In this document: piece by piece, positions 2,528 to 28,613 of the stretch
Layout: the number at the start of each line of letters is the position of its first letter
Numbering within the stretch: position 1 is the stretch's first letter
Assembly (NCBI RefSeq): GCF_000392435.1
Contig: NC_021219.1
Location: 870,001 to 902,000, forward strand
Direction: 5' to 3'
Source: Candidatus Saccharimonas aalborgensis
GTDB lineage: Bacteria > Patescibacteriota > Saccharimonadia > Saccharimonadales > Saccharimonadaceae
Length of the DNA: 32,000 bases
The notes under the pieces: model-generated
The model's database searches: none
What the model was told of the DNA's origin: nothing
Seen by the model: the letters and a program-made list of their open reading frames with translations, nothing else
Made by a program: the position numbers and the translations under genes

Positions 2528-3388
2528 ATGAAGCCACTACCCTCTCTCTCCATAGTTATACCGGCATATAACGAAGAATCAGTCATTGAGCGATGCCTTG
2601 TCGCGTGCGCGACACAAACCCCTTTAGCGGATGAGATTATCGTTATTGACAATAATTCTCGTGATGCGACGCTCAGTATTGCGCGGGACGTCGCTCGTCG
2701 GTACCCTCAGGCAAACATTCGTGTCGTCAGCGAAAAAAAGCAAGGCGTCTTACCGGCGCGTGATCGTGGTTTTCAGGAAGCTAGCTATGAAGTGATGGGT
2801 AGGATTGATGCAGATTCGATTCTCGAGCCAGGCTGGGTGCAGGCCGTCAAAGAAGTGTTTGCTGATCCCGAGGTGATGGCTGCCTCAGGACCAGTGGTGT
2901 ACTACGACATGCCGCTCAAGAAACTAAGTCATAAAGCAGACAATATCATTCGCAAACTACTTCACCAAAACGCCAAAGATCATCGTTTTTTGTTCGGGAC
3001 CAATATGGCTGTTCGGGCAACCGCATGGGACGCCATCAAGGACCATATTCCACCAGACCCCAATGACGAGCATCACGAGGATGTCAGCATCGCCATTACG
3101 CTGTTTCAGCATGGTCTTGAAATTGCCTATGCACCTCTGATGGTGGCCGGTATGTCGGCACGACGTATCGAGGACAAGCCCAAGGATTTTTATCGCTATA
3201 TCATGCGATACGAACGGACATTTAAGGCGCACGGCGTCAAAAGTGCTCAGGCGCGTATGCCGATCTTTATCTATCTGTTAATTTACTTTCCCATTCGCAC
3301 CATACGTCAGTTTTATGATACGGATACAAACAAGTTCACGTGGCGTAAACTCACCGAGCAGATCAAGAGTCACACGAAATCGGACTAA
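2528..3388 (+). CDS. Family 2 glycosyltransferase (paralog of 1615..2460)
   Basis: 286 aa. LSIVIPAYNEESVI...IIVIDNNSRDAT and RIDADS, with the same layout as the upstream gene. Confidence 0.85.
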   Translation: MKPLPSLSIVIPAYNEESVIERCLVACATQTPLADEIIVIDNNSRDATLSIARDVARRYPQANIRVVSEKKQGVLPARDRGFQEASYEVMGRIDADSILEPGWVQAVKEVFADPEVMAASGPVVYYDMPLKKLSHKADNIIRKLLHQNAKDHRFLFGTNMAVRATAWDAIKDHIPPDPNDEHHEDVSIAITLFQHGLEIAYAPLMVAGMSARRIEDKPKDFYRYIMRYERTFKAHGVKSAQARMPIFIYLLIYFPIRTIRQFYDTDTNKFTWRKLTEQIKSHTKSD

Positions 3389-3407
3389 AAAAACCGCATC
3401 ATGCGGT
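3387..3407 (-). terminator. Intrinsic terminator for minus-strand transcripts
   Basis: Minus-strand reading is ACCGCATGATGCGGT followed by TTTTTTT. On the plus strand the run is A7 before the hairpin, so it is oriented for the minus strand. Confidence 0.5.
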
Positions 3408-3424
3408 CAATGAGTTGTAGCGGG

Positions 3425-3468
3425 GTGACCCCGCCCCCAGAGCGTCGAGGCTCCGGAGACGGGGTCAC
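3425..3468 (-). terminator. GC-rich hairpin overlapping the stop codon of the small GC-rich ORF
   Basis: GTGACCCCG (3425-3433) pairs with CGGGGTCAC (3460-3468), a 9-bp perfect stem. There is no U-tract. Confidence 0.35.
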
Positions 3469-3638
3469 TTGCGGCCGAGCAGGTGGTCGAACAGCGTGAT
3501 GATCGCCTCTGCGATCGACACGAGCGCCGACCAGATGCTCTTGATGATGTCCGCCGCCATCGCGGGATTCTTGATGACGACATACACCCCAAACGCGATA
3601 ACCAACCACTTGATGGCAACCACTGCGCCTTTGGGCAC
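3465..3638 (-). CDS. Small hydrophobic (membrane) protein, 57 aa, GC-rich segment 2
   Basis: In-frame GTG at 3638 lies 8 nt after GGGAGG. Product is VPKGAVVAIKWLVIAFGVYVVIKNPAMAADIIKSIWSALVSIAEAIITLFDHLLGRK. Third codon positions are strongly G/C. The track ORF 3465..3704 extends upstream through the promoter, which is unlikely. Confidence 0.5.
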   Translation of the reverse strand: MPKGAVVAIKWLVIAFGVYVVIKNPAMAADIIKSIWSALVSIAEAIITLFDHLLGRK

Positions 3639-3675
3639 CGCACTCACCTCCCTTCCAGGTGTAGGTGAAGTCTGT

Positions 3676-3704
3676 ATTATACAACGAAAAAATGGATAAA
3701 TCAA
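3676..3704 (-). promoter_or_regulatory. Promoter TTGATT-17-TATAAT for the 57-aa ORF
   Basis: Minus strand: -35 is rc of 3699-3704, then an exact 17-nt spacer, then -10 as rc of 3676-3681. Confidence 0.45.
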
Positions 3705-3718
3705 ATAGAGACTTAAAT

Positions 3719-3828
3719 CTCACCCCCTCCCCACTCCAGACAACCGGCCCGCCGCTAACTAAATCAGCCTTCGCTCTTGGCGGGCCTTGGCCCATAAGGG
3801 CCAACTGTCTGTCGGAGGAGGGGGTGAG
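3719..3828 (+). repeat. Structured palindromic intergenic repeat, copy 1 (about 110 bp)
   Basis: CTCACCCCCTCCCCACTCCAGACAACCGGCCCGCC...GGCGGGCCTTGGCCCATAAGGGCCAACTGTCTGTCGGAGGAGGGGGTGAG. The terminal 12-nt arms are perfectly complementary, and there is an inner hairpin TTGGCCC-ATAA-GGGCCAA. It is nearly identical to 20960-21067 and to the reverse complement of 18915-19030. Confidence 0.85.
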
Positions 3829-3877
3829 ATCCAAGTAAGGCCATCTCAGACCTAGTGTGGTTGCAATAGCGAAGTAA

Positions 3878-4360
3878 TTACCGCGCGTGCTTTATTTGGG
3901 CGCTGCTCTCGCGGTCAGCTTGGCGCCGCTTGATTGTTTCGCGTTTGTCCCAACGCTTCTTGCCCTTGCCAAGGGCGATGACAACTTTGATATAGCGGCC
4001 CGAGGTCAGCATTTTTGTGGGGACGATCGTCATGCCAAGTTTTTTGCGAGCGGAGAATAGTTCAATTTGACGTTTGCTTGCCAGTAGTCGCCGGGGTCTC
4101 GTATCAACGCTGTGGGCACCGGGCTTACCTCTCTCGTTGAGCTTCAGACTAAAACTTGCGTTGTTGAGCCATAGGTCTCCGTCTTTGATCGTCACATAGG
4201 CGCCACGGAGTTGGATATGTCCATCACGAGCTGCCCGCACCTCTGGTCCTGTAAGTGATACGCCGGCGACGATATCATCGTCAAGCTCATAATCAAATCG
4301 GGCGCGACGATTGACGATCGGTGCTTTTGGGTGTGATACTGTGGCTTTTTTGGCGCTCAT
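3878..4360 (-). CDS. smpB: SsrA-binding protein
   Basis: Start chosen at MSAKKATVSHPKAPIVNRRARFDYEL... (ATG is rc of 4358-4360). NRRARFDY, GxEVKS-like TGPEVRA, and the basic C-terminal tail KKRWDKRETIKRR are typical SmpB features. Confidence 0.9.
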   Translation of the reverse strand: MSAKKATVSHPKAPIVNRRARFDYELDDDIVAGVSLTGPEVRAARDGHIQLRGAYVTIKDGDLWLNNASFSLKLNERGKPGAHSVDTRPRRLLASKRQIELFSARKKLGMTIVPTKMLTSGRYIKVVIALGKGKKRWDKRETIKRRQADRESSAQIKHAR

Positions 4361-4367
4361 ACTAGTG

Positions 4368-4376
4368 ATTATAGCA
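4368..4376 (-). promoter_or_regulatory. Extended -10 TGCTATAAT placed 7 nt before the smpB ATG (leaderless geometry)
   Basis: rc of 4368-4376 is TGCTATAAT. The gap 4361-4367 is followed by the ATG. Confidence 0.45.
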
Positions 4377-4405
4377 AAATACCGCAAGATGCAGGACAAA
4401 AGGTA

Positions 4406-4434
4406 TTGCTTTTTTGTAGTAATTATGCTATAAT
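4406..4434 (+). promoter_or_regulatory. Promoter TTGCTT-17-(TGC)TATAAT reading toward the 4731 ORF
   Basis: -35 at 4406-4411, 17-nt spacer ending in TGC, -10 at 4429-4434. Divergent from smpB. Confidence 0.45.
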
Positions 4435-4440
4435 GCTTTT

Positions 4441-4730
4441 TATCAGTGATGTGAGGTACAATATATCTCCCACTGCGAAGATTCCAAACGTGCTTCATGA
4501 CTCTTCTTGCGAGAGAAGCTGCCCTCTCCGATATGGTAGAACTAGCCAGCCGGCATCAAACGATTTGTTTGGTCTCGACTGGCTAGTCCCACCCGGATCC
4601 GGGACAAACCCTTTCGCTTCAAGAGTCGGAGGTTCCGGAACCTTTGACAACTCTCTCAGCGAAAGCAGCTTTACCTGCAGTACCCTCGCGACCACCGTGG
4701 CCGCGAGAACCTTCACGAAGGGAGCCAGCA
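4441..4730 (+). promoter_or_regulatory. Long (about 290 nt) multi-hairpin 5' leader or candidate structured RNA
   Basis: Five consecutive hairpins read by eye. They are 4503-4518 (CTTCT/AGAAG) and 4542-4586 (CTAGCCAG/CTGGCTAG with inner ATCAAAC/GTTTGGT). Then 4586-4605 (GTCCC/GGGAC), 4622-4654 (AGAG+TCGGAGGTT/AACCTTTGA+CTCT) and 4685-4707 (CTCGCG/CGCGAG) just before the SD. No known riboswitch motif was recognised. Confidence 0.3.
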
Positions 4731-5153
4731 ATGGCATTCGGAAACAAGGCCCGCATCGCCGCCCTCGAGGCCCGCAACGCCCAGCTCGAGCAGCTGTTCG
4801 GTCGCGCGGACGTCCGCCTGGACACCTACGGGCCCGAGCTCGCCGGCATCTTCGGTGACACCCCGACGGCTCACAGCGCCGGTCGCTGGACCTCGTCCAC
4901 GACCGTCCGCGACATCTACGGGATCAACGTGTCCAACGTGCCGGGCCGGGAGCAGGTCTCCTTCATGGCGATCAAGCACGCCGGCGCCGTCAAGCCGTTC
5001 GTCGTCTCGCTCCACCCGGGCGAGCACGTCGACTTCGACGCCAACGACTTCGCCGACCTCGAGGAGTGGGTCAACGCGGCCCGCACGGGCCAGACCCTCG
5101 ACCCCAACCGGCACGACCAGCGGGCGGCGAAGATGTTCAGCCTCGTCGGCTGA
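4731..5153 (+). CDS. Hypothetical protein, 140 aa, GC-rich segment 3
   Basis: ATG at 4731 lies 6 nt after GAAGGGAG. Product is MAFGNKARIAALEARNAQLEQLFGRADVRLDTYGPELAGIFGD... Hand-read codons end almost exclusively in G/C. The upstream part of track ORF 4644..5153 lacks an SD. Confidence 0.6.
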   Translation: MAFGNKARIAALEARNAQLEQLFGRADVRLDTYGPELAGIFGDTPTAHSAGRWTSSTTVRDIYGINVSNVPGREQVSFMAIKHAGAVKPFVVSLHPGEHVDFDANDFADLEEWVNAARTGQTLDPNRHDQRAAKMFSLVG

Positions 5154-5173
5154 CACATCTCGCTGAGAGAGCT

Positions 5174-5204
5174 GGTGGGGGCGCGCACGCTGTGCGCCCC
5201 CACC
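5174..5204 (+). terminator. GC-rich hairpin after the 4731 ORF
   Basis: GGTGGGGGCGC (5174-5184) pairs with GCGCCCCCACC (5194-5204), an 11-bp perfect stem. Confidence 0.5.
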
Positions 5205-5230
5205 ACTCTCGAACTAAAAAAATAGCAATA

Positions 5231-5261
5231 AAAAAAGAACGACCCACATGGGGTCTTTTTT
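5231..5261. terminator. Bidirectional intrinsic terminator between convergent GC-rich genes
   Basis: A7, then GACCC-ACATG-GGGTC, then T6. An A-run lies upstream and a T-run downstream, so it can work on both strands. It sits in AT-rich backbone-like DNA. Confidence 0.55.
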
Positions 5262-5299
5262 GTATAACAGAGAGAGTTGTTTGTAGCGATAGATTCCGC

Positions 5300-5342
5300 G
5301 TGAAGCGGGAGCCGGGGGCGTATCCCCCAGCTCCCGCTTCAC
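5300..5342 (-). terminator. Long GC-rich hairpin after the 231-aa ORF
   Basis: GTGAAGCGGGAGC (5300-5312) pairs with GCTCCCGCTTCAC (5330-5342), a 13-bp perfect stem, with inner GGGGG/CCCCC. It lies 14 nt past the stop at 5356. Confidence 0.5.
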
Positions 5343-5355
5343 ATGTGCGCTGGGG

Positions 5356-6051
5356 CTAGTCGAGCATGGTCTGGTAGGCCCGCGTGAGCTCGGCGTTGGC
5401 CAGCTCGACGAGCGCCTTGTAATCGGCGACGTCCCGCTCGTGGATGGCCACGAGCTTGGCATTCGCCTGCCGCTCGCGCGTCAGCGCCAGGCGGTCACGC
5501 CGCAGCTGCGCCGTCTGCTCGTCGAGCCAGCGCCCGACGTCCTCGGGTGTCTCGAGCCACTCGGGCAACTCGTCCCACTGGTACTTGCCACGCCGGAACA
5601 GCTTGCGCCACTCGCGCAGCTCGCGAGCGGTCCGGTTGAGCTCGTACTTGTGGTAGTTGAACTGGTGTCCGAGGTCGACGTTGCGTGCTTCGCGGGCGAG
5701 GCGTTCGAGCTCCCTGATGGCCTCCTGGTGCATCTGGAGCAGCTCGCCGAAAGCGACCGCCTGAGCGATCAGCTGGCGGTCGGCCTCGCTGCTGCCGTCG
5801 GCGGCATCGATGCGGATGCGCGCGATGCGGAGCAGCCCGTAGCGGAGCGCCACCTCATGGATGACGCTGCCAATGGCGGCAGCGCGGGGGAAGGCGGGGT
5901 TGAACGTCCCGTTGAAGCGGTAGTCGTTCAAGGCCTTGGCGATGAACCCATCGGGGCGGATCTCGCTGACGTACAGCGTGCTGTACATCGACATCGAGAT
6001 ACCACCGTCGTTCAGTTTGATGACGAACCGTGGCGGGAAGTTCCAACTCAT
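5356..6051 (-). CDS. Hypothetical protein, 231 aa, GC-rich segment 4
   Basis: ATG lies 8 nt after GGAGAGGAGG. The C-terminal half is rich in charged helical sequence (RELERLAREARN..., LRRDRLALTRERQ). No family was recognised by eye. Confidence 0.6.
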   Translation of the reverse strand: MSWNFPPRFVIKLNDGGISMSMYSTLYVSEIRPDGFIAKALNDYRFNGTFNPAFPRAAAIGSVIHEVALRYGLLRIARIRIDAADGSSEADRQLIAQAVAFGELLQMHQEAIRELERLAREARNVDLGHQFNYHKYELNRTARELREWRKLFRRGKYQWDELPEWLETPEDVGRWLDEQTAQLRRDRLALTRERQANAKLVAIHERDVADYKALVELANAELTRAYQTMLD

Positions 6052-6101
6052 GAAGTATGCCTCCTCTCCTGCTCGCAGTGACGGGGAATCCGTCAGGGGC
6101 T

Positions 6102-6158
6102 ACGAATCAGGAGCGGCAGCCATAGTCATAGACTCTATGACCACAACTCCTGATTCGT
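6102..6158 (-). promoter_or_regulatory. Nested inverted repeats in the 5' region of the 231-aa ORF
   Basis: Outer perfect 12-bp inverted repeat: ACGAATCAGGAG (6102-6113) with CTCCTGATTCGT (6147-6158). It encloses a perfect 8-1-8 palindrome GTCATAGA-C-TCTATGAC (6125-6141). Confidence 0.35.
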
Positions 6159-6174
6159 CTAAACTCTCTCTGTC

Positions 6175-6202
6175 AAAAAACAAGGGGCATGTGGTATGCC
6201 CT
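6175..6202 (-). terminator. Intrinsic terminator-like hairpin plus U-tract (minus strand)
   Basis: Minus-strand reading is AGGGCAT-ACCAC-ATGCCCC, then TTG, then TTTTTT. It lies downstream of the coiled-coil gene, but also downstream of the promoter-like site at 6239-6212. Confidence 0.45.
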
Positions 6203-6211
6203 CTCAAATAT

Positions 6212-6239
6212 ATTTTACAACAATAAGATTATTAGTCAA
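6212..6239 (-). promoter_or_regulatory. Promoter-like TTGACT-16-TAAAAT
   Basis: Minus strand: -35 is rc of 6234-6239, 16-nt spacer, -10 is rc of 6212-6217. Confidence 0.35.
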
Positions 6240-6256
6240 TATGCTGATCCCAGATA

Positions 6257-6592
6257 TCAGCCATCGTATTTCAGGTGTACCCCTGCTTGGTCGGCAAGCT
6301 GAAAGATCCAGCGCTCCAAGCGTGCTTGCTGGTGTGCCTGGACTTTCGTCTCCTGGATGAGTGTTTCGATGCGAGACATGTGGGTATCGAGGATGCCATA
6401 GATTCGGTTTACATCTGATTTCAGTTCTGAGACATCTGATTTAAGCTCAGCTACATCTGATTTAAGCTCAGCTACATCTGATTTAAGCTCAGCAATATTG
6501 TCTTCAATTTTATCAAAGCGCTTATCGACGCTATCGGCAAATTGCGAGAGTGTCGAGAGGATTTCTTCGTTGGTAACCTGAGCTTTGACCAT
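6257..6592 (-). CDS. Coiled-coil protein with AELKSDV heptad tandem repeats, 111 aa
   Basis: Start chosen at MVKAQVTNEEIL... (ATG is rc of 6590-6592). The upstream part of track ORF 6257..6883 runs through a GC-rich hairpin element. The protein contains AELKSDV x3 plus SELKSDV. Composition is backbone-like. Confidence 0.6.
   Translation of the reverse strand: MVKAQVTNEEILSTLSQFADSVDKRFDKIEDNIAELKSDVAELKSDVAELKSDVSELKSDVNRIYGILDTHMSRIETLIQETKVQAHQQARLERWIFQLADQAGVHLKYDG
6411..6494. repeat. 21-bp tandem repeat, 4 units (first unit degenerate), in frame within the coiled-coil gene
   Basis: ACATCTGATTTAAGCTCAGCT at 6432-6452 and 6453-6473, and again at 6474-6494 with the last base changed to A. 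The unit at 6411-6431 is divergent. Confidence 0.85.
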
Positions 6593-6663
6593 GTACCCAT
6601 TGTAGCATGTCTCGTCATATGCGTGCTCGGTGTTAGGATTTTGCGGGTTAATTGCACTCACTA

Positions 6664-6741
6664 CGGAAAGGCCGCCCCGACGGGGTGGCCTGAGTGCTCT
6701 ACACGAACTGATGTCCGGAGCGGCCTTTCCGTGGGGGCGGC
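6664..6741. other. GC-rich multi-hairpin element with mutually exclusive pairings
   Basis: CGGAAAGGCCGC (6664-6675) pairs perfectly with GCGGCCTTTCCG (6720-6731). GCCGCCCC (6671-6678) also pairs with GGGGCGGC (6734-6741). A local hairpin GGCCGCCCC-GAC-GGGGTGGCC (6670-6690) competes for the same bases. Confidence 0.4.
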
Positions 6742-6758
6742 GTGATGAAGTGCCTCTA

Positions 6759-7016
6759 CTACGCGTATTTTTTGCGTAGCGTGGGCCGGTTGCGAAACGC
6801 CAGCTCTTTGTCGAGGTGATACAGCAGGGCGAGTTCCAGGACAAGGTTGCTGACGCAGTCGAGGTACTCAGCTTTGGGATCACCGTAGCCCTCCCTCATG
6901 AGCTGGCGGAGCTTGGTTTCGAGCCCCGACATAGCTAGCATCGCATTCGCCCTACGCTCTAGGAGCTCATCCATGCTAAGGGCGGCGAAGCCAGTGGTGG
7001 TGCGAGCGTCGGTCAT
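6759..7016 (-). CDS. Hypothetical protein, 85 aa, GC-rich segment 5
   Basis: Start at MTDARTTTGFAALSMDELLERR... (ATG is rc of 7014-7016), 6 nt after AAGGGAG. The upstream part of track ORF 6759..7094 would run through the promoter. Confidence 0.5.
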   Translation of the reverse strand: MTDARTTTGFAALSMDELLERRANAMLAMSGLETKLRQLMREGYGDPKAEYLDCVSNLVLELALLYHLDKELAFRNRPTLRKKYA

Positions 7017-9907: not shown

Positions 9908-10000
9908 GTCTATTTTCTCCCCCTCTATATGGTGTTCAGTATAACAAATTCAACACTAGAGAGCAACATTTTTGTGCTGGTCACATCCGCATACCACTCA

Positions 10001-10009
10001 TGCTATACT
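10001..10009 (+). promoter_or_regulatory. Extended -10 TGCTATACT placed 6 nt before the ATG at 10016 (leaderless geometry)
   Basis: Same 9-mer and same spacing as upstream of pyrH. Confidence 0.4.
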
Positions 10010-10015
10010 GGAATT

Positions 10016-11926
10016 ATGTCAAGACATATGAACCGCGAGCAAGGCTTTGCGTTGCCAACCGTCGTGATTGTATCGGTCGTTCTTTTTGTGGTAATGCTGG
10101 CGGCGATTTCGTCTGTATCGAGTATTCGTGGCGCACTGTTGGCGCAGTATTATCAGCAACTCGCTCGTGAGGCGGCGGAATCCGGAGCTGAGTTTGCTGC
10201 AAATTGCCTCGATGCTAACTCAAATATCGTGACATGGACCGTAGCAAAACCTCTCAAACCAAATACAGACTGCACCGGAACAGAAGTTGTTGCTTGTACC
10301 TCCATGCCCCATCCTGCAGGGTGCGATGTCAATAGTAGCACAAATATGTATTCAACTTTTTCGGTTGCACCTCCATCGTCAGCGAATCTATTTGACTATA
10401 TTGTCACTGTTACCGCTACGGTAAATCTTGTCAGATCTGGTACGACAACGGTATGGAATAATTATTCGATAGCGATGCGCTACGATCCGGTAAAAAAAAG
10501 TCAGCCCGCATTTCCTAGTGTTCCAACTTTTGGTTCCTCAGGCGTAATATCGGCTTTTAGCGATGGTTACCTCTGGGGCTGGGGGTGTAACGGGTCAAGC
10601 CAGTTTGGTGATGGCACAACGACAAACAAATTGATACCGGGGAGGCTTATCGCCATGAGCGATGTCGTAGACATTGTTTCTGCTGCTATTAACTCGACAT
10701 CGGGCACAGTAACCGCTCTCAAATCTAATGGCTCAGTCTGGGCATGGGGCTACAATGCCGATGGGCAGATCGGCAACGGTACCACTACGACACAATCAAC
10801 TCCGACTCAAGTTATTTCAAGTGGAGTTGTCAAGATATACCCTGTCAAAAGTGCGTCGGGTGTTGTGCACGAAACGGTGTATGCTCTCAAATCTGACGGT
10901 TCGCTATGGGCATGGGGGTATAACGGAAGTGGTCAGGTTGGCAACAATTCCACCACCAATCAGCTCACGCCTGTGCAGATCATCGCTAGCGGGGTAAGCA
11001 AAGTGTATGCGACAGGATATAATGTCTATGTCATCAAATCTGACGGTTCTCTGTGGGCATGGGGAAGTGGGACCAATGGACCGGTTGGCAACAATTCCAC
11101 CACCAATCAGCTCACGCCTGTGCAGATCATCGCTAGCGGGGTAAGCAGCGTCATCACTACATGGTTTGGGGCATACGCAATCAAATCTGACGGTTCGCTA
11201 TGGGCATGGGGGTATAACGGTGCCGGTCAGGTTGGTAACAATTCCACCACCAATCGACTTACACCCGTACAAGTTATAGCCAGTGGGGTATCACAGATGA
11301 TCGCGAGCGCTTCATCTCCCTACCCGGCTCGACTTGTTATCAAAACTGACGGCTCACTCTGGGCATGGGGAAGTAATACATACGGTCAGGTCGGCAACAA
11401 CTCTACCACCAATCAGCTCACTCCCGTACAGATCATGGCGAGCGGAGTGGTTAAAGCATCGGCAAATGACCTGACCACGTTTGCAATCAAATCTGACGGT
11501 TCGCTATGGGCATGGGGGTATAACACAACGTATGGGACGGTCGGCAACAACTCTACCACCAATCGGCTCACTCCCGTACAGATCATGGCGAGCGGAGTGA
11601 CTGCCGCAGGGGCAGATTCCTATAGCGCATACGCTCTCAAATCTGACGGCTCACTCTGGATATGGGGAAATAATAGCAATGGTGTAGTCGGTAATGGCAC
11701 ATTGACAACCCAACTCGTTCCGTATCAGGCAATCAGTAGTGGCGTTACTCAAGTTAATTTTTCGTCGACACTCGTGTATGCCCTAAAATCAGATGGAACT
11801 GCATGGGCGATTAGCAATAATAACACAGCGTGTAATTTGAATGGCACCAATCCTTCCACCTATAATCCGAGAATTCCAGTACAAATTGCGATTCCTCCGA
11901 TCATAATAAAAAGCCGTGCGTATTAA
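10016..11926 (+). CDS. PilX-like (pseudopilin-type) N-terminal anchor fused to an RCC1-repeat beta-propeller protein
   Basis: MSRHMNREQGFALPTVVIVSVVLFVVMLAAISSV is a PilX-type hydrophobic N-terminus. About 9-10 repeats of the form SDGSLWAWGYNGxGQVGNNSTTNQLTPVQI follow (RCC1/ATS1-type WGxNxxGQLG pattern). Start is taken at 10016 rather than the track's 9929. Confidence 0.8.
   Translation: MSRHMNREQGFALPTVVIVSVVLFVVMLAAISSVSSIRGALLAQYYQQLAREAAESGAEFAANCLDANSNIVTWTVAKPLKPNTDCTGTEVVACTSMPHPAGCDVNSSTNMYSTFSVAPPSSANLFDYIVTVTATVNLVRSGTTTVWNNYSIAMRYDPVKKSQPAFPSVPTFGSSGVISAFSDGYLWGWGCNGSSQFGDGTTTNKLIPGRLIAMSDVVDIVSAAINSTSGTVTALKSNGSVWAWGYNADGQIGNGTTTTQSTPTQVISSGVVKIYPVKSASGVVHETVYALKSDGSLWAWGYNGSGQVGNNSTTNQLTPVQIIASGVSKVYATGYNVYVIKSDGSLWAWGSGTNGPVGNNSTTNQLTPVQIIASGVSSVITTWFGAYAIKSDGSLWAWGYNGAGQVGNNSTTNRLTPVQVIASGVSQMIASASSPYPARLVIKTDGSLWAWGSNTYGQVGNNSTTNQLTPVQIMASGVVKASANDLTTFAIKSDGSLWAWGYNTTYGTVGNNSTTNRLTPVQIMASGVTAAGADSYSAYALKSDGSLWIWGNNSNGVVGNGTLTTQLVPYQAISSGVTQVNFSSTLVYALKSDGTAWAISNNNTACNLNGTNPSTYNPRIPVQIAIPPIIIKSRAY
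10936..11147 (+). repeat. Intragenic near-identical DNA repeats within the RCC1 gene
   Basis: A 65-bp stretch GGTTGGCAACAATTCCACCACCAATCAGCTCACGCCTGTGCAGATCATCGCTAGCGGGGTAAGCA is identical at 10936-11000 and 11083-11147. Several further ~35-bp identical blocks (AATCTGACGGTTCGCTATGGGCATGGGGGTATAAC) also occur. Confidence 0.85.

Positions 11927-17237: not shown

Positions 17238-17238
<1 letters not shown>
16372..17238 (+). CDS. atpG: F1 ATP synthase subunit gamma
   Basis: MASTQQLKSRIRSVKSTKQITKAMQMVAASKMRRAQ at the N-terminus and ...ARQSAITQELAEISGGAEA at the C-terminus. Confidence 0.92.
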
Positions 17239-18903
<1,665 letters not shown>

Positions 18904-18914
18904 AAGCTGTCTAA

Positions 18915-19030
18915 GCCCCAAGACCCTCCTCCGACAGACAGTTGGCCCTGATGGGCCAAGGCCCGCCAAGAGCGAAGGCTGATTCAGTTAGCGGCGGGCC
19001 GGTTGTCTGGAGTGGGGAGGGTGTTGGGGC
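18915..19030 (-). repeat. Structured palindromic intergenic repeat, copy 2 (inverted orientation)
   Basis: The reverse complement matches copies 1 and 3 through the core. The terminal arms are changed on both sides to GCCCCAAGACCCTCC / GGAGGGTGTTGGGGC, which are still complementary apart from one mismatch. It starts 12 nt after the atpD stop. Confidence 0.85.
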
Positions 19031-19046
19031 TTCAGATGAAAGTTCT

Positions 19047-19075
19047 TTGACTTTATACAACAATAGTGATATAAT
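19047..19075 (+). promoter_or_regulatory. Consensus-type promoter TTGACT-17-TATAAT
   Basis: -35 at 19047-19052, exact 17-nt spacer, -10 at 19070-19075. Confidence 0.5.
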
Positions 19076-19139
19076 ATAAGAGACGGCCTGTTTAATCGAA
19101 CGAGCCGACCAACAAGCCTCATGTAAGGAGGTGGTTCGC

Positions 19140-19466
19140 GTGCTCAACCACTGGTTGGCGCGTGTGCTCCCAGGAGGGCGCGAGCCCGGAGATCCCTGGT
19201 GGGTCTTCCGGGACGCAGACGGTCAGGACAACGACTGGTGGCCCCAGTTGGTGTCGCTGGGGTGCTACCCCCTGGTCTTCTTCGTTCTCTTCGGGTGGTG
19301 GGGGGTGCTGCTCGGCCTGGTGGCCGCAGTCGGCACGCTCCTCTACTGGGGAGCACTTCTGAGCGTCGCGGTGCTGGTGATCTACGTCCTGCTGTCCCTG
19401 TTTCTGGGGTGGCTGTGGGCACTGGTCATCGTCGCACTGCTCGTTTGGTGGTTCATCTACCGCTAG
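19140..19466 (+). CDS. Trp-rich multi-TM membrane protein, 108 aa, GC-rich segment 6
   Basis: GTG at 19140 lies 8 nt after AAGGAGG. Product is VLNHWLARVLPGGREPGDPWWVFRDADGQDNDWWPQLVSLGCYPLVFFVLFGWWGVLLGLVAAVGTLLYWGALLSVAVLVIYVLLSLFLGWLWALVIVALLVWWFIYR. Other long ORFs here (19119..19526-, 19144..19422- and others) are alternative frames of GC-rich DNA. Confidence 0.55.
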   Translation: MLNHWLARVLPGGREPGDPWWVFRDADGQDNDWWPQLVSLGCYPLVFFVLFGWWGVLLGLVAAVGTLLYWGALLSVAVLVIYVLLSLFLGWLWALVIVALLVWWFIYR

Positions 19467-19496
19467 ACGAGCAGTGTCGCTGTGTACGCTCACTAG

Positions 19497-19533
19497 GGTG
19501 AGAGTGGCAGCCGATCCCGGCTCCACTCTCGCC
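19497..19533 (+). terminator. GC-rich hairpin after the membrane ORF
   Basis: GGTGAGAGTGG (19497-19507) pairs with CCACTCTCGCC (19523-19533): 11 bp including one G-T pair. Confidence 0.45.
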
Positions 19534-19560
19534 CGCGCAGTACAAGATTTCCTCTTAGCA

Positions 19561-19584
19561 CTCTCGCATCGGGCGAGAGTTTTT
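19561..19584 (+). terminator. Intrinsic terminator directly upstream of atpC
   Basis: CTCTCGC-ATCGG-GCGAGAG followed by TTTTT. Confidence 0.55.
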
Positions 19585-19592
19585 GGTATGAT
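19584..19592 (+). promoter_or_regulatory. Extended -10 TGGTATGAT placed 9 nt before the atpC ATG
   Basis: Read directly. It overlaps the end of the terminator's T-run. Confidence 0.4.
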
Positions 19593-19601
19593 AGAACTAG
19601 T

Positions 19602-20027
19602 ATGGATTTTGAACTAATTACCCTCGGTGGCAGTAAAGTCAACGAGCAAGTGTACGAGGTGATTTTGCCAACGGCAGACGGAGAGATCGCGGTATTCCCT
19701 CACCATGAACCGCTGGTCAGTGTTGCATCGCCAGGTGTGATCGCGGTGCGCCGCGACAAACAGCATAGCGATGACCGCATGGAGTTTTTTGCGGTCAGTG
19801 GCGGCATCATCGAGATCGGCAATAATCGTGTTCGCGTGTTGGTTGATGAAGCTGAGCACGGCGACGATATTGTCGAGGCAGAGACACAGGCCGCACTTGA
19901 CCGAGCGCTTAAGATGCGCGATAGTGCAACAGACCAAGTTGAACTCGAAAAAGCCCATCAGTTGGTTGATCGCCACGCTGTTCGCCTCAAGGTAGCTGAT
20001 CTCCATCGGCGCCGGCGAAAGTTATAG
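19602..20027 (+). CDS. atpC: F1 ATP synthase subunit epsilon
   Basis: 141 aa. The N-terminal beta-sandwich pattern (VILPTADGEIAVFPHHEPLVSVASPGVIAV) plus a C-terminal helical hairpin fit epsilon. It is the last gene of the operon. Confidence 0.88.
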   Translation: MDFELITLGGSKVNEQVYEVILPTADGEIAVFPHHEPLVSVASPGVIAVRRDKQHSDDRMEFFAVSGGIIEIGNNRVRVLVDEAEHGDDIVEAETQAALDRALKMRDSATDQVELEKAHQLVDRHAVRLKVADLHRRRRKL

Positions 20028-20928: not shown

Positions 20929-20959
20929 CAAATGTCGAGCCCCGGACGTTAACCCGACT

Positions 20960-21067
20960 CTCACCCCCTCCCCACTCCAGACAACCGGCCCGCCGCAAAC
21001 TGACTAGCCTTCGCCTTGGCGGGCCTTGGCCCATCAGGGCCAACTGTCTGTCGGAGGAGGGGGTGAG
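20960..21067 (+). repeat. Structured palindromic intergenic repeat, copy 3
   Basis: Arms and stems are the same as copy 1. Differences are confined to the central loop and to one base in the inner hairpin loop (ATCA versus ATAA). It lies between convergent genes (stops at 20928 and 21075). Confidence 0.85.
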
Positions 21068-21074
21068 ATTCAAG

Positions 21075-22188: not shown

Positions 22189-22284
22189 TGGAGCCCCATA
22201 CAGGAATCGAACCTGTGCGTGTGCCGGTGTTGCTGGCATTCCACGACTTGGCAAGCCGCAGCTCTACCACTGAGCTAATGAGGC
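22189..22284 (-). tRNA. tRNA-Gly(GCC)-like gene with encoded CCA and an abnormal 26-nt variable region
   Basis: Hand-folded reverse complement. Acceptor GCCTCAT / ATGGGGC (one G-U pair) and D arm GCTC-AGTGGTA-GAGC. Anticodon arm GCGGC-TTGCCAA-GTCGT (two G-U pairs, anticodon GCC). Variable region GGAATGCCAGCAACACCGGCACACGC (can form TGCCAG/CCGGCA). T arm ACAGG-TTCGATT-CCTGT, discriminator T, then CCA. Confidence 0.7.
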
Positions 22285-25500: not shown

Positions 25501-25867
25501 GGTGCATGGTTACCTCGTCAGCAGGACGAAATGCCGCACCATGATAAAAATACTGATTGTTTTGGTTGATCACTTCAGTCCCAAAGCTGTGGAAGGTATG
25601 GATAGCTACCCTATAGGCATCTGGACCAATAATTCCTGCTAATCGTTCACGCATGGCGGCTGCACCACTATCGGTAAAGGTGAGGCAGAGGATGTTTTCG
25701 GGCAATGTATCAGTTGAGCGGAGGATATTTGCGGCACGCATACCGAGGAGCTCGGTCTTTCCTGTGCCGGGTCCGGCTACCACGAGTAACGGGCCATCAA
25801 TGGCATCAACAGCCTGGCGTTGAGCGGCATTAAGTTGGCGATAGCGTGCGTCGAAGGCCGTTGTCAA
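22577..25867 (-). CDS. UvrD/PcrA/AddA-type superfamily-1 helicase fused to a C-terminal PD-(D/E)XK (RecB-like) nuclease
   Basis: 1096 aa. VVAGPGTGKT (motif I), IMVDEFQDTN (II), VGDDDQAIYSFQGA (III), TENYRS (IV), AHKAKGLEFDTVFIV (V) and AMTRACRTLIISY (VI). The C-terminus has GSLDLVDI...VVTDYKTGK. TTG start overlaps the upstream stop (TTGA). Confidence 0.85.
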   Translation of the reverse strand: MTTAFDARYRQLNAAQRQAVDAIDGPLLVVAGPGTGKTELLGMRAANILRSTDTLPENILCLTFTDSGAAAMRERLAGIIGPDAYRVAIHTFHSFGTEVINQNNQYFYHGAAFRPADEVTMHQVLSEIFDELDYTNPLASKNNGEHTHLKDTMSTISELKRAGLSSDELLAIINANEEVLDSIERDLTEIFSNKPSTTMLSLLVPLAERVAALAVPTLPSGITPLANVLALSMAHAFDEAVATNKTTPITAWRNQWLEKNTEGEFVFKDRKRHAKLRSVAHIYYVYLSRMEQAGLYDYDDMILGVVHGMETQPDLKYNLQEKYHYIMVDEFQDTNLAQLRILFDLTDTSANEGNPNVMAVGDDDQAIYSFQGADVNNIHRFRNQYPSHQSIVLTENYRSGAAILQHAREVIVQGTGRLETTMEISKQLEAQKKSESTVILQQLPSVIEERAWIAQSIKERIKNGATPASIAVLARRHQDLVSLLPYLYHEDIAVNYERRDNVLDIEAVRALELLARITVSLHDSEFDVVDSLMPQLLGHPMCKPNPEAIWRLGLTCYRDRITWLEAMQNSERYQPLAQWLISLSANLSHTTLEASIDILTGIPTEEESSSHDYSSPLFAYYFSDERLKDNPDAYLTMLEALRTLRHALRQYRPDQDLTLQDFLSFIELHRQMKTPLVSLRRPSEHAQDAITLLSAHKAKGLEFDTVFIVSAIDSIWGERVRSRTRLIGYPENLPLAPAGNTYDERLRLFFVAMTRACRTLIISYSRHDEQERDSLIARFLVGSSLTPTVSVPQTTLAQLTDHAELAWHDTITKHPSITMKQLLTPQLEAYKLSSTHLNAFIDITRGGPQAFLLHNLLRFPQAKSAAACYGTAIHAVLQRAHTHLAATGDRRPVEDILGDFVTELQNQRLPAAEFALYSKKGVDSLTRFLDAKYSTFTATQKTELNFSTQHVQLGDARLTGSLDLVDIADNSIVVTDYKTGKPSRTWNGNSEYQKIKLHKYKQQLMFYELLVSKSRDYSKYAFTKGVLQFIEPDQSGVIHDLSLTFTEEELAEFSDLIAAVWHCITALELPDTSSFEPTLKGIIEFEHYLIDNFAKK

Positions 25868-27252
25868 AGTTGCAGTTCCTTGTAGGCTTTTTGGAGGATG
25901 GTGAGCACTGTTTGATAGTCGATCGTTTGGTCTGAACCAGTTTTGTAAAGGTAGATTATTGTATCGACCACCTCGATTGATACATGTTCGTCAGTATCAT
26001 AGAGATACGCCATAAAGCCAGGATTAAGTAACTCAAACGTGGCTAATCGATCAGCATCAGTTGCATATACATCATAGCGCTTATTGAAGTCGGGCCACTC
26101 AAACTCGTATTTGGTGTAGCCATCAGGAGCACTATTACCAAACAGTTTTTTTGGTTGAATGAGAATACCGCCGTATGATTTTGGAACGGCAAGCTGTGAG
26201 ATGACAATAGGCTTGCTGGACGAACCGTACGCCTTATATGTATAAAACTGTACAAGGTAACTACCCCACTTACCTACGACGTAGTTATTTATATCTGACA
26301 CGCCAAACTTACCTTTACCAAATAGTTTGCCGCGGCTTGGCAAGAATAGCCAACCCATATCAAGATAATAAAACAGTTTATTGTCTGTTGCGAACTTAAC
26401 CATATCGGCACGCTGTGTGCCAATATCAGCCGTGCTTTGGTCGATGCCGTCAACGAGCCAACCAGTATCATTTTTAATGAGTCGCCAGTATTCTGTAAAC
26501 GTCGATGAGTCTTTGTACAGTGTCGACCCAGTGGGAGTGTCAATCAACGTATCTTTAGCCGAGGCTCGAAACAATACTGTACAGACAGTTCCTTCAGCAT
26601 TACTATCGATAACACGCGATGCACGGATGCGGACATTGTCCATTTGATTCACGCGCTGCAAAACAGCGAGAGCTTCGAGTAGCAGGGCGGATTTATCTCC
26701 AAAGGACGGTGTTGTAAGCAAACGGATAGCTGCACTATCGCCTCTACTCCACGCAGACTGATAATCTTGGAATAGTGTTTTAGCCGATGAGAGTACGGTA
26801 GTTGCCTGCTGTGGTCCAACCATCTTTAGTGAACGCCGAGGAATGGGTAACCTAGCCGCTATTTTTGCACCATGAATAATACCTGCCACGGTGCCTATTA
26901 TTACGCTGCTGCCGTACAAGAGTCCTATTGGCCAATAGAGTATCGCACACAAGGTGCTTGCTATACCCGCACCCAAGACTTCAATTTTTATAAGTGTGCG
27001 AGGCTGCACAGACGGGAACCTCTTTTTTAGGTCCCGTAGAAGAATTGCCCCTATTAACGTCGTAAGGACACCTAAAAGAACTGTTGTGGCGAGCATTGAT
27101 ACGAACGGATCAAGAGGATCGCCGCTGCCCGAAGATCCGCTACTATGGCCTCCGCCACCTCCACCGCCACCTCCACCTCCGCCGCCACCGCCGGACCCAC
27201 CACCGCCACCGCGGCCAAAATCTCTGAGGAGTGATTCGAGGAGAGATATCAT
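25864..27252 (-). CDS. Membrane protein: poly-Gly N-terminus, TM segments, Tim44-like middle region, conserved C-terminal domain (paralog B)
   Basis: 462 aa. N-terminus is MISLLESLLRDFGRGGGGGSGGGGGGGGGGGGGGGHSSGSSGSG. The middle has FTEYWRLIKNDTGWLVDGIDQ, the pattern seen in Tim44-like domains. The C-terminal part (...YTKYEFEWPDFNKRYDVYATDADRLATFELLNPGFMAYLYDTD...) is nearly identical to the upstream paralog. Confidence 0.7.
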   Translation of the reverse strand: MISLLESLLRDFGRGGGGGSGGGGGGGGGGGGGGGHSSGSSGSGDPLDPFVSMLATTVLLGVLTTLIGAILLRDLKKRFPSVQPRTLIKIEVLGAGIASTLCAILYWPIGLLYGSSVIIGTVAGIIHGAKIAARLPIPRRSLKMVGPQQATTVLSSAKTLFQDYQSAWSRGDSAAIRLLTTPSFGDKSALLLEALAVLQRVNQMDNVRIRASRVIDSNAEGTVCTVLFRASAKDTLIDTPTGSTLYKDSSTFTEYWRLIKNDTGWLVDGIDQSTADIGTQRADMVKFATDNKLFYYLDMGWLFLPSRGKLFGKGKFGVSDINNYVVGKWGSYLVQFYTYKAYGSSSKPIVISQLAVPKSYGGILIQPKKLFGNSAPDGYTKYEFEWPDFNKRYDVYATDADRLATFELLNPGFMAYLYDTDEHVSIEVVDTIIYLYKTGSDQTIDYQTVLTILQKAYKELQL

Positions 27253-28613
27253 AGCTGCAGTTCCTTATACGCCTTCTGCATGAGAGTCACCATAAGTTGA
27301 TAATCCGCGGAAGTTGCCGCTTTTTGATTCTTGTAGAGGTAGATGATATTGTCAGTGACTTCGATGCATATATTGCCATCTGTGTCATAGAGATAGGCCA
27401 TAAATCCAGGATTGAGTAGTTCAAACGTCGCTAGGCGATCGGCGTCAGTAGCATATACATCATAGCGCTTATTGAAGTCCGGCCACTCAAACTCGTATTT
27501 GGTGTAGCCTTTTGGTGCTCCGTCTCCAAAGAGATTTTTGTTAAATATATTTCCTGATTTTGGACGAATCCAGATACCGCCATATGATTTTGGGACGCAG
27601 ATCTGGGCAACGATTTTTGGTAAGACAGTACTATCGCTCGGCATAAGGCTCAGTGTGTAGAATTGTACGAGGTATTTGTCCCACATGCCAATAACGTGGT
27701 TGTTGACATCACTTTTGCCGAACTTGCCGTTACCCAGAAGTTGACCATATCGTGGTAAGAACAGCCACCCCATGTCAAGCGAATAATACATGTTGTTTGC
27801 AGCCGCAAAGGCAGCGAGCTGATTATCCGCTAGCGATTTATCCGCTGTGCTTTGTTCGATATGATCAAGCAGCCACGAAGATTGGTTGCGCTGAAATGTC
27901 CAATATTCTGTGAAGCTAGAAGCATCTCGGAATAGCTGTGTATTTGATGCAGTATCAATGAGAATATCGTCAGCAGTTGCCTCTATGGCAACAGTAAAAC
28001 TATCTTTGGTGTTGTCGGCGTCATCATGAATATCGATAATTTCGCAGCGAAGTATAGTAGGGTTTCCTACGACATTTTGTCGTCCTAACTGTAGCAGTGC
28101 GAGCATCAGTAAGTAAGCATGGTAGGTATATCGCTGGGTCGCGTAGGTCTTAATTCGGCCCGTATCACCTTTTGACCAATCAGACTGATATGCCATGAAT
28201 ACCTGCTGTGCATATGAGACGAGTGAGGCCTCATCCCATGCATTGTCAGTTTGTGCGGCGGAAGACAATTTTTGTTTTGCGGCTTTTCTTCGTTTGGAGA
28301 GTTTATCCCATATATCAAAGAATGCCGAGTGCCAGCCGAGCCAAATACCAATGATGACGAGTGTCATGAACCACCACATTGCGCCACCGGCTACAATGCC
28401 AATGATAAATAGAATGATTGAAAACACGGTTGCACAGGCGGCGCTAATGATAAGCTCCAGTGTGCGCGGAAAGAGTTTCTTGACAAGTTTACCGAGATAA
28501 TAACTTGGGATATAGCCCACGATAGCAAGTCCCATATCACCGCCGCCACCTCCACTGGAGCCCCCTCCTCCGCTTCGAGCGAAGTGCAATAAGACGTTGT
28601 AATCCATAGCCAC
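27249..28613 (-). CDS. Membrane protein, paralog A of 25864..27252
   Basis: 454 aa. ARSGGGGSSGGGGGD near the N-terminus, several TM helices, FTEYWTFQRNQSSWLLDHIEQ, and the same C-terminal domain. The stop overlaps paralog B's start (ATGA). Confidence 0.7.
   Translation of the reverse strand: MAMDYNVLLHFARSGGGGSSGGGGGDMGLAIVGYIPSYYLGKLVKKLFPRTLELIISAACATVFSIILFIIGIVAGGAMWWFMTLVIIGIWLGWHSAFFDIWDKLSKRRKAAKQKLSSAAQTDNAWDEASLVSYAQQVFMAYQSDWSKGDTGRIKTYATQRYTYHAYLLMLALLQLGRQNVVGNPTILRCEIIDIHDDADNTKDSFTVAIEATADDILIDTASNTQLFRDASSFTEYWTFQRNQSSWLLDHIEQSTADKSLADNQLAAFAAANNMYYSLDMGWLFLPRYGQLLGNGKFGKSDVNNHVIGMWDKYLVQFYTLSLMPSDSTVLPKIVAQICVPKSYGGIWIRPKSGNIFNKNLFGDGAPKGYTKYEFEWPDFNKRYDVYATDADRLATFELLNPGFMAYLYDTDGNICIEVTDNIIYLYKNQKAATSADYQLMVTLMQKAYKELQL

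Follow-up and report, generated by a model that had tools for sequence, protein, structure and literature searches.

The stretch of DNA analyzed here, referred to as the window, covers 32,000 nt of the chromosome of Candidatus Saccharimonas aalborgensis (TM7; NC_021219.1), and the coordinates given below are window positions unless they carry the label of another locus. It contains three copies of a palindromic hairpin repeat of approximately 125 nt, two of which stand immediately upstream of small GC-rich genes, gene A at the smpB/A/GT2 locus and gene B at the atpD/atpC locus. The genomes of the Saccharibacteria, at around 1 Mb, contain hardly any spare DNA, and the gain of genes in these organisms is poorly understood. 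The comparison of alleles shows that the repeat and the gene are separable, rather than parts of one fixed module, and that repeats and GC-rich cassettes co-localize in a few strain-variable gaps, which provide concrete loci for the study of accessory-gene turnover in the candidate phyla radiation (CPR).

On the minus strand, copy 1 of the repeat (3712..3835; nhmmer envelope 3845..3704, 154 bits) is followed by the promoter of gene A, TTGATT-17-TATAAT (3676..3704), which matches the consensus at 10 of 12 positions, a leader of 23 nt, the Shine–Dalgarno (SD) sequence GGGAGG (3647..3652), an 8-nt spacer, and the GTG at 3638 that opens the gene. The open reading frame (ORF) of gene A (3465..3638) encodes 57 aa, with a GC content at third codon positions (GC3) of 0.84 and hydrophobic segments at residues 3-24 and 31-50. 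Downstream lie a GC hairpin, GCGGGG-TCA-CCCCGC (3420..3434), and an intrinsic terminator (3385..3408), formed by a hairpin at 3408..3392 and a T-run; the latter overlaps the stop codon of GT2, a convergent gene. An alternative in-frame GTG, 9 nt upstream, overlaps the SD sequence and is used by some gene callers to give 60 aa, and the 57-aa form is favored because of its 8-nt SD spacing. All the elements of this layout were described in the initial annotation, and all are present; the gap between the repeat and the promoter is also there, but counts 13 nt rather than the 14 nt given originally.

The same order, relative orientation, 8-nt SD spacing, and GTG start recur at 18910..19585 on the plus strand, as had been claimed. 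Here, copy 2 of the repeat (18910..19036) lies 7 nt past the atpD stop codon, and is followed by the promoter TTGACT-17-TATAAT (19047..19075), with a TG before the -10 hexamer and an 11/12 match to the consensus, and by the SD sequence AAGGAGG (19125..19131), 8 nt before the GTG at 19140. The maximal ORF (19131..19466; GC3 0.85) has 111 aa, and its first GTG, at 19131, is in frame and overlaps the SD sequence; the likely start at 19140 gives 108 aa, the length also given by the callers in other assemblies. The protein is hydrophobic from about residue 40 to the end, and both A and B are, by their hydrophobic segments, small membrane proteins, which confirms this part of the earlier description. 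The intrinsic terminator (19560..19585, or 19560..19580) is followed by TGGTATGAT and by the ATG of atpC at 19602. Each of the eight strains examined has gene B between atpD and atpC.

Two further observations can be made at this locus. The sequence TGGTATGAT (window 19580-19604), which resembles an extended -10 element, comes straight after the gene B terminator, and the atpC ATG lies approximately 12 nt further on, with no visible SD sequence; after the splitting of the atp operon by the cassette, atpC may have come to be transcribed on its own, into an mRNA that is almost leaderless. An acidic ORF of 99 aa (17238-17537, plus strand), which has no Pfam match on record, also lies between atpG and atpD, overlapping the longest atpD ORF, and is called as a gene in eight of the eight strains examined.

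The separation of the repeat from its gene is clearest at the smpB/A/GT2 locus, which was compared with L-numbered loci that are metagenome assemblies centered on repeats, and not whole genomes. The repeat is present in the window and in L015 and L017-L019, and is missing from six assemblies (L012, L013, L014, L016, L048, and L051) in which the promoter, SD sequence, GTG, and ORF of gene A are unchanged, so that the recurrent module proposed initially does not hold as a fixed unit. In these empty alleles, the smpB stop codon stands 3-4 nt from the -35 hexamer, and the spacer between that stop codon (3880..3878) and the hairpin (3836..3877, minus strand) is found only in the repeat-bearing alleles; by eye, this spacer contains GGTCTGAGATGG, which would resemble a terminus of the repeat. 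The promoter and the SD sequence of gene A are invariant across strains, with or without the repeat. Because the promoter is present in the empty alleles, the repeat supplies no promoter, and it appears not to be needed for the expression of its neighbors. A tree built from 520 nt of flanking sequence mixes filled with empty alleles, and the window is 1.5% from the empty L048 and L051, which indicates either an old dimorphism that has been reshuffled by recombination or the recurrent gain and loss of the element.

At the atpD/atpC locus, it is the repeat that changes beside a constant cassette. In the independent assemblies L011, L037, L045, and L046, the repeat at the site of copy 2 is flipped, with other termini and junctions, and in L039 it is flipped and degenerate, with a left arm that is heavily mutated, mostly from G/C to A/T, and an intact right arm; the gene B promoter is conserved in all the alleles, as is the gene. 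In L039, an AT-rich ORF encoding a membrane protein of 86 aa, with a terminator of its own, also lies upstream of the repeat and cassette B (L039:1-400). The orientation of the repeat is not, then, the constant that it seemed to be from two instances, and over all the sites, promoter-bearing cassettes stand on the R side of the repeat at five and on the L side at four.

The third copy in the window (20953..21074, minus strand) is solo; it lies between a CDCA-like gene and dus, which are convergent, and this strain has no cassette there. The three copies are 97% alike over approximately 101 nt, and the arms of the repeat show 97% complementarity over 101 nt. The repeat is itself GC-rich, at about 62-65%, and its fold is Y-shaped: a long outer stem is joined to two inner hairpins, TTGGCCC-N4-GGGCCAA and GGCCCGCC-loop-GGCGGGCC. 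The fold energy is -70 to -85 kcal/mol on both strands, with z values of about -7 to -8, and the F strand, defined as the strand read toward genes A and B (minus in copy 1), gains extra G-U pairs that make it approximately 14 kcal/mol more stable (-84 vs -70 kcal/mol). Compensatory changes are already visible between the outer stems of copies 1 and 2, and in an alignment of 30 distinct copies, 96.2% of the pair cells hold standard pairs, and 12 of the 42 pairs have double-sided changes, against 5.3+-1.3 in shuffles, none of which reached 12 in 500 trials, and against 3-6 in the control with sliding partners. Nearly all of these double changes are located in the outer stem, and the two inner hairpins and their loops are almost invariant. 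The single-strand hairpin is thus a constrained feature of the repeat, whether as RNA or as single-stranded DNA. No Rfam family was found at the repeat, either over the whole window at the gathering scores or in E-value mode on 3350-3900, where the hits were at chance level; the repeat also has no U-tract, and is not flagged by the terminator scan.

The repeat family is specific to the Ca. S. aalborgensis lineage. By its AtpC, the window belongs to the same species as the complete genome CP064959.1. A core pattern with 22 specified bases, scanned over one genome per species in 185,579 species, matched only the metagenome-assembled genome (MAG) JBAQIS01 of Ca. Saccharimonas aalborgensis, apart from a 26-nt match in Streptomyces sp. 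NBC_00829 (L002:314-339). The latter was considered as a possible relative and rejected, given that the similarity is confined to a GC-rich palindrome of 26 nt; this palindrome lies approximately 300 nt from the end of the linear Streptomyces chromosome, amid other short palindromes of the telomere type. A scan of metagenomes recovered 19 further loci with the repeat, and a scan of a collection of viral contigs gave no match. The repeat profile produced 45 matches, with more in the later loci, which collapse to about 17 distinct sites, and the single MAG JBAQIS01 carries at least 14 copies. No published description of this repeat was found in the literature.

Every copy is intergenic. At most of the sites, the base of the hairpin lies 7-50 nt past a stop codon, and a -35 hexamer starts 5-17 nt beyond the other end, or promoters lie on both sides; native promoters adjoin the repeat in the same way as those of the cassettes, as seen at ftsA, rpsP, rplJ, queA, rnhB, and GT2. 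Three sites lie between convergent genes. In the MAG, two tandem copies, 295 nt apart (L010:7265-7703, and also in L036 and L038), flank the leader of ribosomal protein L10, which makes up the 120 nt between them (RF00557, 49.7 bits), so that one copy is placed in sense orientation between this leader and the rplJ ATG, that is, inside the 5' untranslated region (UTR) of an essential gene. The presence of a copy in this position argues against the hairpin as an efficient terminator.

The genes beside the repeat belong to a broader class of cassettes, of which the window contains other members. One is an ORF of 140 aa (4731..5153, plus strand; GC3 0.95), which has a TTGACA-type promoter and a terminator of its own, and lies in an island that has no repeat within 150 nt, the nearest, copy 1, being approximately 800 nt away, past smpB. 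Another is an ORF of 231 aa (5356..6051, minus strand; GC3 0.91), of the same class and with no adjacent repeat, which follows a long structured leader and, near 6240..6212, a TTGACT..TAAAAT promoter. GC3 is 0.49-0.58 in the host genes of the window, in contrast with 0.84-0.95 in the cassette ORFs, and this composition is foreign, with no donor that can be named. More generally, the islands at window positions 4500-6250 and 1-700 have 63-66% GC, AT-rich consensus promoters, long structured leaders, terminators, and no adjacent repeat, and their ORFs are orphans kept in place across strains (L048-L051). A search with nhmmer --max found no degenerate remnants of the repeat beside those islands of the window that are not adjacent to a copy. 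In the other cassettes, the encoded proteins are mostly soluble, ATG is as frequent as GTG, and the SD spacing is 6-8 nt, so that neither the membrane-protein cargo nor the combination of GTG start and 8-nt spacing, both proposed originally as recurrent traits, is general. The features common to the cassette promoters are limited to the hexamers and TG motifs.

The pN/pS ratio is 0.27 for gene A (five alleles) and 0.19 for gene B, which shows that both are translated and under constraint, and A and B are real orphan genes under purifying selection. Neither has a match in Pfam, PHROG, or PADLOC, and the only relatives found for A, B, and the 231-aa island ORF come from the same lineage, with identities of at least 79-86%. 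For gene B, a full HMMER pass over 1.84 billion representatives recovered nothing beyond these same-lineage relatives, so that the homology searches speak neither for nor against an actinobacterial host as the source. The two larger island ORFs gave no tblastn match in 50,697 phage records, and another cassette ORF had only non-significant matches in PHROG (E 0.056 and 0.085). The sole repeat-adjacent GC-rich gene with a recognizable function is a CdsA-like phosphatidate cytidylyltransferase (L026:212-1051, minus strand; PF01148, E 4e-23; GC3 0.78), which ends directly at a repeat copy and could help to trace the donor.

The association of the repeat with GC-rich sequence extends well beyond the two instances described initially. 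With islands defined as 150-nt windows with a GC content of at least 0.63-0.64, the survey of the neighbors of the repeat showed that islands adjoin it at 8 of the 17 sites. In the non-redundant sequence, 8 of 21 islands lie no more than 150 nt from a repeat, against a mean of 1.14 when placement is random inside the same loci, and none of 20,000 permutations reached eight. The association is therefore real, and not a coincidence of two cases; the proposal that the repeat marks the sites of GC-rich genes is upheld to this extent, and fails as a rule in that 9 of the 17 sites have no cassette.

The junctions indicate that change is concentrated in the gaps with a repeat. The element of L016 at site 16 takes the place of 24 nt, unrelated to it, that are found in L012, L013, and L017, and the comparison of the filled and empty alleles revealed no target-site duplication, only a microhomology of 5 nt. 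At site 1, approximately 10 nt have been replaced, an additional 47 nt accompanies the repeat, and again there is no target-site duplication. Site 3, which is that of window copy 3, has the repeat in all the strains, and L040, L041, L042, and L044 carry an insert of 122 nt exactly at its edge (about 4345-4466), in which a GC-rich hairpin, CCCCGGACCTCTC..GAGAGGTCCGGGG, comes after TTACTT-17-TATGAT. CP064959.1 (L047) retains a partial remnant of this insert, which may be a tiny transcription unit or a remnant. Junctions of the replacement type fit recombination or repair-type events, and not cut-and-paste transposition. A Pfam search of 24 window ORFs, which include most, not all, of the large ORFs, yielded no transposase or integrase.

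The explanation that is preferred here, with about even confidence, is that two independent accessory components gather in the same permissive, recombination-prone gaps. The first component would be a non-coding palindrome, similar to the ERIC and REPIN families considered below, which spreads or is exchanged within Ca. S. aalborgensis and would survive only in non-coding gaps, mostly those that run from a stop codon to a promoter or lie between convergent genes. The second would be a set of cassettes resembling the morons of phages, each with a consensus promoter, a strong SD sequence, a GC-rich orphan ORF, and a terminator. In a dense genome of approximately 1 Mb, only a minority of the gaps, at the boundaries of transcription units, would tolerate an insertion, and each cassette would add a new boundary of this type, where the hairpin does no harm, as in the atpD/atpC gap. 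If the tolerant gaps are few, both kinds of DNA would pile up together, and give the appearance of a module. The statistics can be read in this way, given that a null model in which only about three in eight gaps are permissive, a fraction that is assumed rather than measured, removes the excess (P=0.56), which makes the association explicable by a shortage of permissive gaps. The permissive-gap cause, like the mobilization route of the repeat and the function of A and B, is something that we infer.

A number of points weigh against this explanation. When the islands are limited to gaps and all the gaps are treated as equal, the association persists (P=0.0027), so that the account needs an assumption on which gaps are permissive. 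Gene B interrupts the atp operon, where no boundary between units would naturally fall, and the high GC content that the repeat has in common with the cassettes hints at one foreign source for both. The junctions at the repeat are unusually variable, including the 122-nt insert, the 47-nt segment, the additional ORF of L039, and the segments replaced at sites 1 and 16, and the repeat itself could, given this variability, promote rearrangement. The absence of an identified transposase and the sampling of loci centered on the repeat, rather than whole genomes, count on the same side.

These points lead to the alternative that the palindrome is an active landing pad, which either breaks or serves as an anchor of homology in natural transformation, and captures cassettes at its edges. 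This is unlikely, although still credible, and the same applies to the anchor variant, homology-facilitated illegitimate recombination, which forms part of it. Capture of this kind would fit the strong co-localization, which holds even under the gap-level null, together with the polymorphic promoter-like insert exactly at the edge of site 3, the additional AT-rich ORF that precedes the repeat in L039, the replacement junctions with microhomology and without duplication, the existence of two different repeat alleles at one site, and the terminus-like remnants that can be seen by eye beside full copies. It has to contend, however, with the six assemblies in which cassette A has no repeat, the 13 of 21 islands that are not adjacent to one, the repeat sites without a cassette, and the scans of species genomes and viral contigs, which found no donor with both the repeat and a cassette; breakage and anchoring are, moreover, wholly matters of conjecture. 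The fuller claim that the repeat both marks and helps to create hot spots of gene capture, through the integrase-free stitching of promoter-bearing cassettes at its edges, is more doubtful. If the hairpin acted instead at the RNA level, as an insulator, a weak terminator, or a stabilizer of 3' ends, selected upstream of strong promoters and especially those of foreign cassettes, its usual place shortly after stop codons and before -35 boxes would be explained, as would the very stable fold, its compensatory changes, and the better pairing of the F strand. This reading is nevertheless decidedly unlikely, given that the repeat lacks a U-tract and escapes the terminator scan, that an efficient terminator would not be tolerated in the rplJ 5' UTR, where a sense copy lies, that the orientation relative to incoming transcription is mixed, and that close relatives still include both filled and empty alleles.

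The remaining alternatives are less probable. The possibility that A and B serve selfish addiction cassettes as type I toxins, or as holin-like killers, draws on their small size, hydrophobicity, strong promoters and SD sequences, and on the fact that, as orphans, they keep their position across strains; a consensus scan, the only search made for this purpose, gave no signal of an antisense promoter or small RNA over either gene, and the lack of PADLOC, Pfam, or PHROG matches, the size of gene B, which with 108 aa and about three transmembrane segments is larger than typical type I toxins, and the soluble products of the other cassettes combine to make this improbable. The strict form of the initial annotation, in which the repeat, promoter, ORF, and terminator move as a single mobile module, is favored by the identical order and relative orientation at both of the window instances, and by L039, where cassette B and its repeat follow a different upstream sequence. 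It has been largely refuted by the empty alleles and by the flipped repeat beside an unchanged cassette, and L039 still ends at the atpC start, which means that the cassette has not moved; cassettes are also found on either side of the repeat, and their promoters are not homologous beyond the hexamers, so that very little credence can be given to this form. The interpretation of the hairpins as attC-like sites, with the GC-rich ORFs as gene cassettes of the integron type, would account for an imperfect palindrome of approximately 125 nt, close in size to a chromosomal attC such as the Vibrio cholerae repeat (VCR), beside small foreign ORFs. It is just as hard to credit, and was rejected on both motifs and architecture, since the copies have no RYYYAAC / GTTRRRY core sites, with 32 distinct copies ending in ..TCTCAACCCC / GGGGTGAGA.., the hairpin precedes a cassette-borne promoter rather than following a promoterless ORF, the sites, which vary in orientation, are scattered rather than arrayed, and there is no integrase among the 24 window ORFs run through Pfam.

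Whichever of these mechanisms applies, two components stand out. One is a palindromic repeat family of the Ca. S. aalborgensis lineage, which was previously undescribed, and the other is a class of strongly promoted, GC3-rich orphan genes under purifying selection, one of which is wedged inside the ATP synthase operon. Should the repeat actively drive capture, it would amount to a simple and novel means of acquiring genes, and if it creates capture hot spots, it would perform an integron-like function by another mechanism, and provide a route to new surface or membrane proteins in the epibiotic Saccharibacteria. If it has no role in capture, it still marks permissive sites, and it shows that compaction of the genome is enough to produce a recurrent arrangement, with no functional link required.

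Other features of the window, outside the repeat and the cassettes, may also be recorded. A tRNA-Gly(GCC) (22189-22284, minus strand) is called at 96 nt, and the Rfam tRNA model extends over 93 nt but has 71 positions, so that approximately 20 nt would be inserted after the anticodon arm. In the ORF at 6257-6883 (minus strand), tandem repeats of 21 nt (6410-6514) encode a coiled coil with the heptad AELKSDV, with only weak matches of the coiled-coil type. Two adjacent paralogues (25864-28613, minus strand), with Tim44-like and DUF3137 domains, contain Gly-rich stretches of low complexity encoded by CCGCCACC-type repeats (families D3, D4, and D9). Internal repeats of 147-168 nt (10712-11746, plus strand) lie within an ORF of 665 aa (9929-11926), the equivalent of which in L049 and L050 has RCC1/WD40_RLD repeats.

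The repeat and the cassettes each recall systems that are known from other bacteria. The integron shares with them a palindromic site of approximately 60-140 nt associated with small foreign ORFs, and differs in its core motifs and its array, neither of which is found here, in the cassettes having their own promoters, in the side on which the hairpin stands, and in the integrase, which was not seen. As in type I toxin–antitoxin systems, genes A and B encode small hydrophobic proteins, with two segments in A and the region from residue 40 onward in B, and no promoter-like site for an antisense gene was found on the strand opposite either cassette. The likeness to phage morons lies in the self-contained unit of promoter, ORF, and terminator, with a deviant composition, wedged between conserved genes. 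These cassettes differ from morons in their location on a bacterial chromosome, with no prophage context or sign of phage origin, the tested cassettes having no significant match in PHROG or in the tblastn search of phage records.

The repeat is a short, non-coding, multi-copy element with insertion polymorphism, as are the miniature inverted-repeat transposable elements (MITEs). A classical MITE was rejected, given that no target-site duplication is seen at site 1 or site 16 when the filled alleles are compared with the empty ones. The ends of the repeat form an inverted repeat and covary, and variation is greatest in this part, with conservation in the center, which is the reverse of the pattern in classical MITEs, where the termini are conserved. 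The Correia/NEMIS elements of Neisseria and other bacterial MITEs are also short non-coding inverted repeats that occur beside promoters and gene ends, are co-transcribed, and vary in their presence at a site; they differ from the present family, in which 10-24 nt are replaced, no target site is duplicated, the termini are the least conserved part, and the promoter hexamers are not supplied by the element. An intrinsic terminator, as a further candidate, is weakened by the missing U-tract and by the tolerance of the copy in the rplJ leader.

The REPINs are inverted doublets of repetitive extragenic palindromic (REP) sequences, which are mobilized by the REP-associated tyrosine transposases (RAYTs). 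They resemble the repeat in the long intergenic hairpin formed by inverted halves, the absence of a target-site duplication, the maintenance of the pairing through symmetric or compensatory changes, and the better pairing of one of the strands, and differ in that there are about 14-17 copies of a single 125-nt unit here, rather than hundreds of REPs of 20-40 nt, mostly in inverted doublets, and that the center is conserved and the outer stem is variable. No RAYT gene was seen in the sequence examined, which is less than a whole genome. The enterobacterial repetitive intergenic consensus (ERIC) sequences, or intergenic repeat units (IRUs), are imperfect palindromes of about 127 bp. To our knowledge, a link to GC-rich orphan cassettes is not a feature of ERIC, nor of the REPIN or Correia-type families. 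The present repeat differs from ERIC in its phylum (CPR/Saccharibacteria), its Y-shaped core with two inner hairpins, and the lack of a TA duplication, the likeness being one of form, with none expected in sequence. The similarities include the size, the imperfect palindrome whose central core is highly conserved, the strictly intergenic position, often within transcribed regions, the tens of copies whose presence varies among strains, and an obscure mode of mobilization.

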